DNA of 49,093 nt from a virus (Duplodnaviria > Heunggongvirae > Uroviricota > Caudoviricetes). Below, one piece after another: positions 43,860 to 47,687 of the stretch. The stretch covers positions 1-49,093 of the IMG/VR virus record IMGVR_UViG_2718218136_000007; one strand, 5' to 3'. The translations under genes and the position numbers were made by a program. Within the stretch, counting starts at the first letter, position 1. Every line of letters begins with the position of its first letter. The notes under the pieces were generated by a model. That model saw only the letters and a list, made by a program, of their open reading frames with translations. It did not search any database and was not told the DNA's origin.

Positions 43860-46800
43860 TCACACGCTGCGCCTTCGAGAATATTCATTTAATCGCTGAT
43901 AACGAACATCTTGCTCCAGTTGTGGAGCAGCTTGAACAATTTGAAGCAAGCATTGCCCCAACTCTCGAGGCCCCCAGTGTTGTTCGGCAATCACGGCATT
44001 CAGCAGGGATAGAGCGTCCGCAGGATATCGGCTGCAAATATCTGATTCTAGCAAAAGGCGAACGTCGTAGCTAAGGTGTTCGAGCGGTTGCAGCCAGTCC
44101 TGCACCACTGCCAAAGCCGCCGGAAATTCACCTCGGGCAGCAATCACCATACGAGTCAACGATTCGGATATGCGTGGGGTGGCCAAGTTGCGGGACTTTG
44201 GCCAAACCTGTTGCCAAAATGGCTGGACACGATTTTTCCAATACTCCTCGCGCTGATCGCCCGCACCTTCAAGTGCCTGGTATAACGCCTGCGCGGCTAC
44301 CTCCAGACCTTCTTGTGGAAGAGCACTAATTGCCGTTCGGAACTCCTCCACGGTATATCCCTCGGTAGGGCCCAGAGCTGCATAAGTCAGGAAAATAGCG
44401 AATTGCTGCCGGTGCTCGCCAAGATCAGAATAGTGATTGGCGCTCTCCAAAAAATCTGACTTGAAAGCTATCAGCAACGGTTCATACAGGCGTGGCGACC
44501 AGAGGAAGCCTTCCCACACAGCTTTTGCTTCGACGGGATTACTCCAAGCAAACAAGGGCAATAGATACTGTTCGGTCCAAGGTCGATCTACGCGAAAAAA
44601 TGCGATCAGCCGCGACCCCAGCAACACCCGACCATGGCGGAATAGCTCTATCTGTACATTACACAATTTGGTGAAAAGTGTTTTCAATTCAACAGGAAGC
44701 AAATCATTGTCATTCGGGTTCTGTTTGAACCATAGGGTGATCAGTGATTGCGTGACATGCCCAATGGGATGATTGATCGCCGTAGAAACAGGATCATAGG
44801 TCTCAATTCCGTTTCGAATGGTGCTAGACTCTGGGCTTGTTTCTATCATCAGAACCCGACGACAAAGGGCCAGTAGAATCTCCTCGTGGCAGAGGATGGT
44901 CTTCGAAGCCTCCTCCATCCACCAAGTGACAGCGTGGGAAATCTCCTGAAGTACTGCGTCAGGCATGTCAAGCACCAACGGTGCGGCGTACCGCCACGAA
45001 CGCAAAATCATCCCTGGTTCAGCCCAAGTCTGCAGAGCTTCACGCCACCGACCAACAGGCCACACATCATCTTGTGATAGTTTACGTAACGCATACAGAC
45101 TGTGAAAAAAGCGCGTACGGCAAACATCACTCCAAGTGTCCTCATAGAAAGGCAGTCTTTCTGGCATAGGCTTTGCGAGCCATTGCACTAATTCCTGCCA
45201 CTTACGGGGCGCAATGTCGACATCTATACTCTCCTCGAAGCCTGGATCACCGGTTCCGCTCATCCAGTGAGAGAATTCATCACGCTCGTTGGTTGCCAGT
45301 TGCCATTTTGGGTATGCTGTGGATATTTCCGTCAAACGTGTAGCCGCAGACTCTCCCAAAACAAGGCCCGCTCCCCTGAGCTTCGCTAGACACAACCAGA
45401 CGGAATGAGCCACCAAATAATGCCACCTGTCTGCTTCCAAATTATCCTCGTACATCTCGCGCGGAGGCCCTGCCAAGATAGCAGTTTCCAGACGCTCTTG
45501 TGCAATTCCTGTCAGATGTCGTCCCTGCAAAACAAACAGTCTGAATACCTCTCGCCGAGTATCCGTGGCCCACAACCACCATGAACCGTCCTCTAACAAC
45601 CAATTAACCCACCGCTCAGGTGGTATGCAGTTGTCTTGGCTTGCGGCAAACAGTGCCAGACGTTTGAAGGTGGGATATGGCAACTCAAACCAATTCTGAG
45701 CAATGCGCGAGGCCTGATCGCTGTCTTTGGCTCGAACGGCTAACCATGAATCCCGAAGTAATTCAATCAGGCTCACCCAATCGCGGAACCCCCGGTTCTG
45801 CCAGTGCGGAGTGATGGACGGCAAATCCCAATGCGAGCGGTCGTGACGATCGTCGGACTCTCCCAACTCCCGCAACAAGTCCAGTGCATCACGCAACAAC
45901 TGCTGAAAATCTTCCAACAGGTATGGCAAGGACGATTTCCATGACTCGTCAGCAAGGTCGAACAGGGTTGAACGTACGTAATCAGCAGTCAGCACCAGCT
46001 CCCAATCCACCAATTGCTTGATTCGCAAGGGTTCATCAGTGCTGCTCGAATCGTCTTCACTATAGCGAAACGGCCGCCTCAACATAACCTTGGGAGAAAG
46101 CAACCCGCGTAACTCCAAGCGCAATGTAGTCGTCAAGCCTTCATTCTTTAAGCGGTTTTGCCAACGATACAAATCCAGGTTCTGCAATGGCGATTTCACA
46201 CGACCACTAAGCAGAAGCCGCCATAAAGTAGACATAGGTGGACCAGGAATAGCCAGGGGGGAATGCAAGAGAATTTCATCTAACTCAGAAGTCTTACGCT
46301 CCCGCATCAGTGCTGCTAAGCGATCTAGTTCGCTCTCAATCAGAAACATCCAACGGTCGTGTATTTGTCCGCCGCGTTCAGCAATCCATATGATCAACCT
46401 AGGGTCGCCCAGATAACGAACTAGCCAACGGGCTATATGGGACATTACGTCATCCCATTTGCTAGCACTGACACATCCAGAAACCAGCGACATCTGCGGG
46501 GCCAGCTCATAGGGCGCAGGACGCTGAACCAGACTGAATCGGAGTTTCGGGTCAATTTCGACATGCGGAGATACACAAAAGCGTGGCAGATCGCTGTATT
46601 TAAATCGTTCGTCCGAGAAAGCTTTCAATAACCAATCCAGCGGCGGTGCAGGATTGAGTTCCGCAAAGCGTTTTGCTGGTAAACCTGATTTATCTGACAA
46701 GGCCCACAACATCCGACCAACGAAATCGTCCTGACGAGTGCTGTCCTGCGGGCGGGCCAGAGCATGTTTGACGACTATAGCCTCTTTGCCCTGTATACCA

Positions 46801-47687
46801 TCTCGATAAGTATCTGCCCAAGCGTGCAACGTTTGATGCAGCACTGAATGATCAGTGGAGCCCGCCGGTACGGTGTAAAGGATAGGAGTGACCCCTTTGG
46901 CCTCCCACTCGATGGCTTTCCGGTGCTCCTGCCCCGGCTCACACTCCCCCAGTGCCCATACTTGTGGTGTGACTTCACCGAGCCTCCGATCTGCTGCAAG
47001 CGCATCCATCATGTAGCGCAGTACCGGGTCGTTGATGCTGTAGCCAACGAAGCAGACCACATAGTTACGAAATAACTCACTCACAAAGCGAGCTGCCCAA
47101 CGCTCAGTGAGATAAGCCAAGCCAAAGTCACCGCTGGTAACAACCAGACGATTCAGGGCAGTATCATCCGCCTTTTCCGGTAACAGCCCATGCAGGTATA
47201 CAAGTCCATCCCAGCGGCTGTTTTTTGGAATTGGCAGCATCGGCGCTACATAGGCCTGAAAAGCCTGGCCTGTACGTTTAGCTGCCACATGAAAGAGACG
47301 GTCAAAGTTGGTAGTGACCAATCGAAGGGCACCCTCGCGGCTACGGGCTAAACGTAACAGCGCCGCCTGAGTATCAATAGCGCCCCTACGACGGAGCTTT
47401 GGCTTAAGGGCTTTTTCCAACGCGCGTCGGACGGCTATACGCTGCCCTGGTAAGCGCCGTTCCAGCAAATCTAATGTGCCGTCAAATTGCCCACGCTCGA
47501 AAACCTCACGCTCAATTTCTGAAAGTGTTGTTCCGTTCCTCTGGTAAATTAGTTCTACCAACCCTTTGAAACCAGGTAAACCAGCAGGGTAGGAAATGCC
47601 TGCTCCACAGAAGAACACAACGCGCCCTTCCTCGTGCGCCTGCAAAAGCTCATCAGGAATATCAGGGCCGTTGGTAATGAATTGCAT
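43860..47687 (-). CDS. SIR2-domain protein, 1275 aa (N-terminal sirtuin-like NADase domain plus about 1000-aa uncharacterised helical region): candidate single-gene anti-phage defence protein (DSR-like)
   Basis: N-terminal motifs VVFFCGAGISYPAG (aa 23-36), TTNFDRL (aa 125-131), YLHG (aa 164-167) match SIR2_2-type sirtuin signatures; no Walker A/P-loop seen; AGGAGG 5 nt upstream of ATG 47687; lies between xis and int. Confidence 0.7.
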   Translation of the reverse strand: MQFITNGPDIPDELLQAHEEGRVVFFCGAGISYPAGLPGFKGLVELIYQRNGTTLSEIEREVFERGQFDGTLDLLERRLPGQRIAVRRALEKALKPKLRRRGAIDTQAALLRLARSREGALRLVTTNFDRLFHVAAKRTGQAFQAYVAPMLPIPKNSRWDGLVYLHGLLPEKADDTALNRLVVTSGDFGLAYLTERWAARFVSELFRNYVVCFVGYSINDPVLRYMMDALAADRRLGEVTPQVWALGECEPGQEHRKAIEWEAKGVTPILYTVPAGSTDHSVLHQTLHAWADTYRDGIQGKEAIVVKHALARPQDSTRQDDFVGRMLWALSDKSGLPAKRFAELNPAPPLDWLLKAFSDERFKYSDLPRFCVSPHVEIDPKLRFSLVQRPAPYELAPQMSLVSGCVSASKWDDVMSHIARWLVRYLGDPRLIIWIAERGGQIHDRWMFLIESELDRLAALMRERKTSELDEILLHSPLAIPGPPMSTLWRLLLSGRVKSPLQNLDLYRWQNRLKNEGLTTTLRLELRGLLSPKVMLRRPFRYSEDDSSSTDEPLRIKQLVDWELVLTADYVRSTLFDLADESWKSSLPYLLEDFQQLLRDALDLLRELGESDDRHDRSHWDLPSITPHWQNRGFRDWVSLIELLRDSWLAVRAKDSDQASRIAQNWFELPYPTFKRLALFAASQDNCIPPERWVNWLLEDGSWWLWATDTRREVFRLFVLQGRHLTGIAQERLETAILAGPPREMYEDNLEADRWHYLVAHSVWLCLAKLRGAGLVLGESAATRLTEISTAYPKWQLATNERDEFSHWMSGTGDPGFEESIDVDIAPRKWQELVQWLAKPMPERLPFYEDTWSDVCRTRFFHSLYALRKLSQDDVWPVGRWREALQTWAEPGMILRSWRYAAPLVLDMPDAVLQEISHAVTWWMEEASKTILCHEEILLALCRRVLMIETSPESSTIRNGIETYDPVSTAINHPIGHVTQSLITLWFKQNPNDNDLLPVELKTLFTKLCNVQIELFRHGRVLLGSRLIAFFRVDRPWTEQYLLPLFAWSNPVEAKAVWEGFLWSPRLYEPLLIAFKSDFLESANHYSDLGEHRQQFAIFLTYAALGPTEGYTVEEFRTAISALPQEGLEVAAQALYQALEGAGDQREEYWKNRVQPFWQQVWPKSRNLATPRISESLTRMVIAARGEFPAALAVVQDWLQPLEHLSYDVRLLLESDICSRYPADALSLLNAVIAEQHWGPRELGQCLLQIVQAAPQLEQDVRYQRLNEYSRRRSV

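Follow-up and report, generated by a model that had tools for sequence, protein, structure and literature searches.

Dsr1, an anti-phage sirtuin encoded beside the integrase gene of a defective lambda-like prophage of Escherichia coli

SIR2 domains form a class that includes deacetylases and ADP-ribosyltransferases. Dsr1 (defence-associated sirtuin 1) has reportedly been named as a defence system since 2020. EcDsr1 (WP_029488749.1) from E. coli NCTC9112 defends E. coli against a few Drexlerviridae (T1-like) phages; among 73 phage genes, only the one for the ZL19 major capsid protein activated it, co-expression of EcDsr1 with this capsid protein kills cells, and disruption of the NADase domain abolishes this toxicity (preprint 10.64898/2026.01.04.697583). 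The same capsid protein was the unique match for SeAvs7 among the 73 genes, the reportedly homologous Avs7 sensor wraps the HK97 fold in cryo-EM, and the authors note alternative activators for other sensors (10.64898/2026.01.04.697583). The capsid-trigger evidence for EcDsr1 comes from one preprint and from a screen of the genes of one phage. A DSR1 expressed in Bacillus subtilis depletes NAD+ during phi29 infection, with a transient drop and no collapse of the culture (10.1101/2021.12.14.472415), which contrasts with the lethality of EcDsr1 produced together with the capsid protein. A plasmid bearing the dsr1 gene of ECOR17 alone, preceded by 300 bp of its own upstream DNA, gives MG1655 protection from T4 without nrdC.5, a T4 counter-defence gene against E. 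coli Dsr1 (PMC9391042). NARP1, a NAD+-rebuilding pathway, overcomes DSR1 (10.1101/2024.02.11.579819).

The window analysed here, a stretch of 49,093 nucleotides, is 100% identical to the genome of E. coli O177:H21 (NZ_CP016546.1). A previous sequence-only reading had singled out one 1275-aa ORF, on the minus strand at 43860–47687, as a candidate DSR-like defence gene lying in an accessory slot between integrase and excisionase. The features of this region are:

43463..43657, plus strand: excisionase, 64 aa (PHROG 1553, full length, E 7.7e-36)
43708..43859, minus strand: 3′ flank of the dsr1 cassette (pairwise blastn breakpoints with sister prophages at 43655–43707)
43860..47687, minus strand: dsr1 coding sequence, 1275 aa, WP_001159683.1 (ORF; PADLOC and NCBIfam Dsr1; RefSeq dsr1)
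43863..46877, minus strand: C-terminal all-helical putative sensor region, aa ~271–1275, predicted alpha-solenoid
46878..47687, minus strand: predicted N-terminal SIR2 NADase domain, aa ~1–270 (Pfam SIR2_2; motifs; fold match of the AlphaFold2 model)
47688..47824, minus strand: upstream part of the dsr1 cassette (AGGAGG at 47695–47700; TATAAT at 47751–47756; homology breakpoint)
47870..49093, minus strand: tyrosine integrase, 407 aa (Pfam Phage_integrase, Arm-DNA-bind_3 and Phage_int_M; PHROG 1)

The ORF is present and intact as described, starts with ATG and has an in-frame TAA 18 codons 5′ of this start. Its product matches the PADLOC Dsr1 model PDLC02183 from end to end (1–1275 of 1275, 2733.6 bits), and the NCBIfam Dsr1 equivalog NF041818 aligns aa 1–1271 on model positions 1–1263 of 1263 with 2057.3 bits, for an equivalog cut-off of 1400 bits. 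A chance ORF is excluded by the Pfam SIR2_2 match (aa 123–269, E 9e-23) and by SIR2 motifs that are invariant, together with the catalytic Asn and His, across 62 homologues of 75–82% identity. Judged from its sequence, the gene is Dsr1, described in the literature as an anti-phage system that works as a single gene. The profile searches proposed beforehand (SIR2_2 and PADLOC) therefore uphold the assignment to the defence SIR2 class, whereas the status of candidate has to be dropped, since Dsr1 is an already named and tested system. Indeed, RefSeq already labels the gene at 43860–47687 as dsr1, and the protein of the window is known in the full sense: named, annotated, and represented by a near-identical allele that was tested experimentally.

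This allele is EcDsr1 of NCTC9112, which shares 1274 of 1275 residues with the Dsr1 of the window; 1 nt separates the two coding sequences. The flanks are identical over 182 nt upstream and 397 nt downstream, and the NCTC9112 prophage has the same slot (int – dsr1 – xis) beside yjjG. The single difference lies at residue 302, Glu in the window and Lys in the tested protein; E302 is invariant among the 62 homologues and is the family consensus residue. The E302 allele of the window would be expected to behave like the tested K302 allele. Of the 5426 complete E. coli genomes covered, 76 carry dsr1. The gene is at least 99.8% identical in about 65 genomes; in some other strains it is interrupted by IS1203 or truncated.

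The three SIR2 motifs were located exactly at the residues that had been read by eye: GAGIS at 28–32, TTNFD at 125–129 and YLHG at 164–167. The putative catalytic residues are N127 in TTNFD and H166 in YLHG. An AlphaFold2 model of the SIR2 half (pLDDT 66, pTM 0.67) matches the SIR2 domains of KomC, ThsA, DSR2 and SPARSA with E 1e-8 to 1e-6 and TM 0.5–0.6, so that the comparison with DSR2 and ThsA suggested by the sequence-only reading does return a SIR2 fold in both cases, at the moderate confidence of the model. KomC N107 and H146 align with Dsr1 N127 and H166, with a spacing of 39 in both proteins, and H146N is the deposited catalytic mutant of KomC.

The remainder of the protein, described earlier as about 1000 Trp/Leu-rich, helical residues with no P-loop, proved to have this character: its 1005 aa contain 4.4% Trp and 13.9% Leu, the AlphaFold2 model of the region consists of helices with zero strands, and neither [AG]xxxxGK[ST] nor GK[ST] occurs once in the whole protein. 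Both half-models have a pLDDT of about 66 and that of the sensor is poor at aa ~271–640; given this moderate quality, the models were used for fold class and for SIR2 neighbours and not for the detailed shape of the sensor. A search with the sensor model, among PDB structures that included neither Avs7 nor Dsr1, matched generic solenoids alone. In sequence searches, the sensor by itself (aa 301–1275) finds Dsr1 proteins of 75–100% identity over 100% of the query length. Among the 150 best representatives of 50%-identity clusters, 126 carry a SIR2 N-terminus and 24 are shorter (501–1028 aa), the latter being most simply read as truncated fragments. The 120 best matches at the level of 90% clusters each have SIR2_2 or are truncated.

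The dsr1 gene is the sole ORF inside a cassette of about 4.1 kb, bounded at ~43708–47824, between int and xis. The tyrosine integrase gene lies directly upstream in the same direction and the excisionase gene downstream in convergent orientation, in agreement with the slot proposed initially; the excisionase ORF gives sub-threshold Pfam HTH matches and is unannotated in RefSeq. Homology to sister prophages picks up again only at ~47825–47888 on the integrase side, and a hairpin (43715–43727) just within the 3′ flank adjoins the other breakpoint. The region 47688–47824 is identical in NCTC9112, H10407 and O157:H7 AC-3. It contains the strong AGGAGG ribosome-binding site that had been noticed from the letters, 7 nt ahead of the dsr1 ATG, and a perfect TATAAT read by eye. 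A consensus promoter scan upstream of dsr1 found nothing above the shuffle background and called no strong sigma-70 promoter, as explained by a weak −35 element. The integrase is present in 700 of the 5426 genomes and adjoins yjjG in 9 of 9 loci inspected; in E. coli O177:H21, yjjG and prfC flank the prophage of the window. This prophage is defective: an IS66-family element splits its tape-measure gene, and an IS10-like element interrupts an early gene. It also carries a gpE-type HK97-fold capsid protein (19797–20822), 97.9% identical to E of phage HK630; among the matches sampled, which were not exhaustive, this protein showed no sequence similarity to T1-like phages. In sister prophages the int–xis slot is occupied by other, uncharacterised genes, and the cargo genes of four such prophages matched no Pfam or PADLOC family. 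These alternative slot genes include WP_000653746.1, WP_015740443.1 together with WP_000551783.1, WP_001190315.1 and WP_000040219.1. We conclude that the now defective lambda-like prophage carries dsr1 as a self-contained cassette, in the cargo slot next to its integrase gene.

We consider it very probable that, as a whole, this cassette encodes a capsid-triggered SIR2 NADase defence. The C-terminal alpha-solenoid sensor of about 1000 aa would hold the N-terminal SIR2 domain inactive. Upon infection, newly made phage major capsid protein of the HK97 fold would be bound by the sensor, and the SIR2 domain, through N127 and H166, would be activated as a NADase converting NAD+ into ADP-ribose and nicotinamide. 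Phage replication would then be stopped, transiently or through cell death. Autoinhibition and direct capsid binding are steps that we infer, because binding is known for SeAvs7 alone, the link to EcDsr1 being toxicity upon co-expression. By analogy with the measurement made for a DSR1 in B. subtilis, the E. coli protein would likewise act by depleting NAD+. The initial proposal of a SIR2 defence triggered by a phage structural protein is borne out by the literature on the allele differing at one residue, for which this protein is the major capsid protein and the NADase domain is needed.

The trigger in E. coli might nevertheless not be, or not solely be, the major capsid protein, another phage product or a host perturbation acting in a phage-dependent manner; we regard this as rather unlikely. 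The capsid protein was identified by screening one phage, other sensors have alternative activators according to the preprint authors, and the phages concerned are diverse, ECOR17 Dsr1 restricting nrdC.5-deficient T4, a very different phage, and a DSR1 restricting phi29. However, the capsid protein was the unique match in the screen for both SeAvs7 and EcDsr1, and the reportedly homologous Avs7 sensor was seen by cryo-EM around the HK97 fold. The T4 capsid protein also has this fold, so that one trigger class could cover these phages.

It is very improbable that the SIR2 domain modifies a specific host or phage macromolecule, as a deacylase or ADP-ribosyltransferase, instead of depleting bulk NAD+. 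Both activities exist among SIR2 domains, the profile weakly touches human sirtuin-3 (only aa 13–42, E ~0.2), and the transient NAD+ drop without collapse in B. subtilis leaves room for another effect. Against this, the nearest neighbours in structure and sequence are all defence NADases (KomC, ThsA, DSR2, SPARSA) with no deacetylase among them, and the Pfam match is to SIR2_2 and not to the deacetylase family. Furthermore, measurements with a DSR1 showed NAD+ to be depleted (10.1101/2021.12.14.472415), and the fact that NARP1 overcomes DSR1 argues for NAD+ loss as the effective step. Finally, that dsr1 is a silent passenger of a decaying prophage, an unexpressed or inactive allele giving the strain no defence, is scarcely credible: although the prophage is broken by two insertions, no upstream promoter was called by the consensus scan and dsr1 is disrupted in other strains, the 3828-nt ORF is unbroken and stands behind a strong ribosome-binding site and a perfect −10 box, its near-identity is kept across about 65 genomes, its 182 upstream nt match the tested NCTC9112 allele exactly, residue 302 agrees with the family consensus, and the ECOR17 homologue functions with 300 bp of its own upstream sequence (PMC9391042).

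With capsid-triggered NADase defence as the preferred reading, the locus has little discovery value, since Dsr1 is already named, is covered by PADLOC and NCBIfam models and a RefSeq label, and was tested as an allele differing at one residue. Its value is one of calibration: a real defence system was recognised from raw sequence alone, with the domain logic correct. What is new here is small, namely the distribution in 76 of 5426 genomes, the bounds of the cassette and the slot contents of sister prophages. Two leads are left, the uncharacterised integrase-side slot genes of the sister prophages and the coexistence of a capsid-sensing protein with the capsid protein of the same prophage. As the prophage carries both an HK97-capsid sensor and its own HK97-fold capsid protein, the cassette could be tuned to tolerate the latter. 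It is a speculative and rather doubtful extension that the cassette may tolerate the resident capsid yet exclude T1-like or other competitors, that the range of the E302 allele might differ from that of K302, and that the sister-slot genes could be undescribed defence genes.

Among known systems, KomC is the closest solved SIR2 domain by sequence (E 2e-4), and KomC and ThsA have the closest SIR2 folds (E ~1e-8 with the predicted model), with catalytic Asn and His at equivalent positions. Both lack the ~1000-aa solenoid sensor of Dsr1. KomC belongs to a multi-gene system, in which it is a subunit of 264 aa, and ThsA (type I Thoeris) contains a SLOG domain and is activated by a signal that ThsB makes. 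The gene of the window is not ThsA, as had been argued from the missing SLOG domain: the ThsA HMM gives a weak match to the SIR2 part only (aa 13–230, E 3e-5), Pfam detects no SLOG and no TIR/ThsB neighbour is present.

DSR2 (Bacillus subtilis 29R; PDB 8W56, 8WKS, 8WYA and others) resembles Dsr1 in its layout, with one chain joining a SIR2 NADase at the N-terminus to a long helical sensor for a phage structural protein at the C-terminus, and the two SIR2 domains superpose (E ~1e-7, TM ~0.55, using the predicted Dsr1 model). In contrast, DSR2 is about 1000 aa long, versus 1275 aa for Dsr1, and its trigger is the tail tube protein, versus the major capsid protein in the literature on Dsr1. Phmmer and profile searches of the PDB with Dsr1 did not retrieve DSR2. 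The absence of a Dsr2 HMM match and the failure of the sensor model to retrieve the DSR2 C-terminal domain identify the gene as DSR1 and not DSR2, so that only the first half of the DSR1/DSR2-type architecture suggested earlier is retained.

STAND/Avs proteins, including the SIR2-bearing Avs5, are ruled out by the absence of Walker A, of any Pfam NTPase domain and of a PADLOC Avs match, in line with the first assessment. Avs7 combines a STAND NTPase with a Cap4 nuclease effector and forms tetramers with ATP and EF-Tu, whereas Dsr1 has a SIR2 effector and no P-loop; yet SeAvs7 and Dsr1 are reported to have homologous bilobed C-terminal sensors and to sense the same ZL19 capsid protein (preprint 10.64898/2026.01.04.697583).

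The open reading frame described in the sequence-only reading was recovered at 43860-47687 (minus strand), with 1275 codons starting at an ATG. The start of this gene, dsr1, is well bounded, since a TAA lies in frame 18 codons 5′ of the ATG. The reported ribosome-binding site, AGGAGG, is located at 47695-47700, with the ATG 7 nt further on. A consensus promoter scan of the upstream region made no call because of a weak -35 region. The following features of dsr1 and its immediate surroundings are used below.

43463-43657, plus strand: excisionase, 64 aa (PHROG 1553, E 7.7e-36, full-length match)
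46782-46784, minus strand: codon 302 of dsr1, Glu here, Lys in NCTC9112 (EcDsr1) and H10407
47751-47756, upstream of dsr1: perfect TATAAT, read directly from the sequence

The three SIR2 motifs are found where they had been placed (GAGIS 28-32, TTNFD 125-129, YLHG 164-167), with N127 and H166 indeed 39 residues apart, and the proposed profile search recovered Pfam SIR2_2 on residues 123-269 (E 9e-23). The PADLOC Dsr1 model PDLC02183 aligns over its entire length (residues 1-1275 on model 1-1275, 2733.6 bits), and the NCBIfam equivalog NF041818, "anti-phage defense-associated sirtuin Dsr1", scores 2057 bits for a curated cut-off of 1400. Three independent profile libraries are thus concordant on the identity of the gene, and the protein has every feature of Dsr1 membership that can be tested on sequence. 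Over all its 49,093 bases the window matches positions 1526148-1575240 of the E. coli O177:H21 chromosome (NZ_CP016546.1) without a difference, and the gene there, 100% identical, is annotated as dsr1 (WP_001159683.1); this exact protein is listed publicly as Dsr1 and found on 203 contigs. Observation and interpretation of a DSR-like protein were therefore both correct, but the gene is no mere candidate: it is already known, named and annotated in this genome record, and an allele one residue away has been characterised experimentally.

The model of the SIR2 half (residues 1-330) is of moderate confidence (pLDDT 66, pTM 0.67). Structure comparison matched it to DSR2, ThsA, KomC and the SPARSA SIR2 subunit, its best solved matches all being anti-phage SIR2 NADases (E 1e-8 to 1e-6, TM 0.5-0.6). 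KomC is the sole solved relative of the domain by sequence; its N107 and H146 align with N127 and H166 of Dsr1 with equal spacing, and H146N is its catalytic mutant as deposited.

Residues 271-1275, the sensor half, are Trp/Leu-rich (4.4% and 13.9%) and helical, as had been predicted: the AlphaFold2 model contains helices only (mean pLDDT 66.9), being confident from about residue 640 on and poor before. Comparison of this model with solved structures found neither the DSR2 C-terminal domain nor Avs proteins, and a family-profile search found no solved relatives of the sensor. The sensor family comprises 2771 representatives (50% clustering, E<=1e-3), 864 of them at E<=1e-30. Among the best 150, all 126 that are long enough to include the N-terminus carry a SIR2 domain (126/126); for the remaining 24, of 501-1028 aa, truncation is the simplest reading.

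The protein used experimentally in a 2026 preprint, EcDsr1 (WP_029488749.1; 10.64898/2026.01.04.697583), was located as the dsr1 of strain NCTC9112. It differs from the window protein by one nucleotide and one residue (K302 instead of E302), and the flanks are identical over 182 nt on the upstream side and 397 nt on the downstream side. E302 is kept in 62/62 homologues (75-82% identity), so the window allele has the consensus residue. This allele would be expected to behave like the tested K302 allele. L14F or G528E occurs in further natural alleles.

The most likely mechanism is drawn from literature on this near-identical allele and on homologues. EcDsr1 defends against a few Drexlerviridae phages, its toxicity is lost once the NADase domain is disrupted, and among 73 co-expressed genes of the T1-like phage ZL19 the major capsid protein was the sole trigger of cell death; its sensor is reported to be a homologue of the one in Avs7, a STAND protein whose sensor wraps the HK97 fold in a cryo-EM structure (10.64898/2026.01.04.697583). 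In B. subtilis infected by phi29, a DSR1 expressed there lowers NAD+ transiently, without culture collapse (10.1101/2021.12.14.472415). ECOR17 Dsr1 with 300 bp of native upstream DNA stops T4 lacking nrdC.5 (PMC9391042), and the phage NAD+-rebuilding pathway NARP1 defeats DSR1 (10.1101/2024.02.11.579819). Newly made capsid protein would be sensed by the solenoid, turning on the SIR2 domain; cleavage of NAD+ would follow, then phage failure. Direct binding of capsid protein by the sensor is what we infer, since binding was shown for SeAvs7 and the EcDsr1 link is co-expression toxicity. Bulk NAD+ loss is presumably the effective step for E. coli Dsr1.

A lambda-like prophage, integrated between yjjG and prfC, makes up the window; its head, tail and lysis genes are of lambda type. 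The prophage is defective. Its tape-measure gene and an early gene are each split by an insertion sequence:

12296-14911: IS66-family element (tnpA, tnpB, ISCro1-like transposase) inside the tape-measure gene (11132-16418)
41235-42560: IS10-like element (ISVsa5-family transposase, 402 aa) in the early-left region, cutting an Eae-like/DUF551 gene

With its tape-measure gene split, the dsr1-carrying prophage cannot make tails. The IS10-like element is missing in three sister prophages (L003, L005, L006). Two DNA methyltransferase genes, one of N-6-adenine type, lie at 29025-30077 and 33986-34639 (both minus), and a small hypothetical gene (27104-27424) occupies a low-GC patch between terminase and lysis genes.

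The order int - SIR2 - xis holds: a 407-aa tyrosine integrase is the immediate upstream neighbour of dsr1, in the same direction, and the excisionase is convergent with it. Pfam helix-turn-helix matches to the excisionase frame fall below threshold, and the RefSeq record leaves it unannotated. Its start overlaps the stop of an intact 206-aa frame with a DUF551 domain (42843-43463, plus; E 1e-17), which RefSeq presents as two pseudogene fragments (42843-42968 and 43224-43463), as in several other genomes.

The integrase occurs in 700/5426 complete E. coli genomes and adjoins yjjG in 9/9 inspected loci; dsr1 is found in only 76 of the 5426 (67/76 at >=99% identity) and in one deposited phage record, a Stx2c-converting phage. 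In four sister prophages with integrases 95-97% identical at the same yjjG/prfC site, homology ends just past the stop codon of xis (about 43655-43707) and restarts at that of int (about 47825-47888). These breakpoints show that dsr1 and its own upstream region form a swappable cassette of about 4.1 kb. The gene is broken by an IS1203-family element in CUVET18-789 (NZ_CP115312.1 3969379-3974519, match H7), and three further genomes (H114-H116) keep only a truncated copy, 14-58% as long as the gene, indicating that the system is occasionally lost. The sister prophages (coordinates internal to each locus) carry other genes in this slot:

L003, 5639-6634, plus strand: 331 aa
L004, 5263-6573 and 6566-6811, plus strand: 436 and 81 aa
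L005, 6020-6835, minus strand: 271 aa
L006, 5978-6697, minus strand: 239 aa

A Pfam and PADLOC scan gave no match for them at E<1e-3, and any of them could be an undescribed defence or accessory gene. In strain C21 (L005) the prophage at this site is only a remnant; an annotated TIR-domain anti-phage reverse transcriptase adjoins prfC there (1074-2678, plus), so defence cargo has a second position in this element family. At the far end of the prophage, beside the tail-fibre genes, a stretch of low-GC DNA (GC 0.41) carries a serine acetyltransferase gene (window 1-546, plus), which may be cargo as well.

The correct call is a good result for reading of raw sequence. Two leads are left: the alternative cargo genes of the slot, and the tolerance by a capsid sensor of its own prophage's capsid protein, which is of lambda gpE type (97.9% identity with HK630 E). 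Among known systems, ThsA and STAND/Avs proteins had rightly been set aside: Dsr1 lacks a SLOG domain, no thsB lies beside its gene, and both the Walker A pattern and the GK[ST] tripeptide of a P-loop are missing from the entire protein. Identity with DSR2 was rejected, as there is no model match and no sensor similarity, and the reported trigger differs. Dsr1 resembles DSR2 in fusing a sensor to a SIR2 NADase that answers a phage structural protein, but constitutes a separate family.
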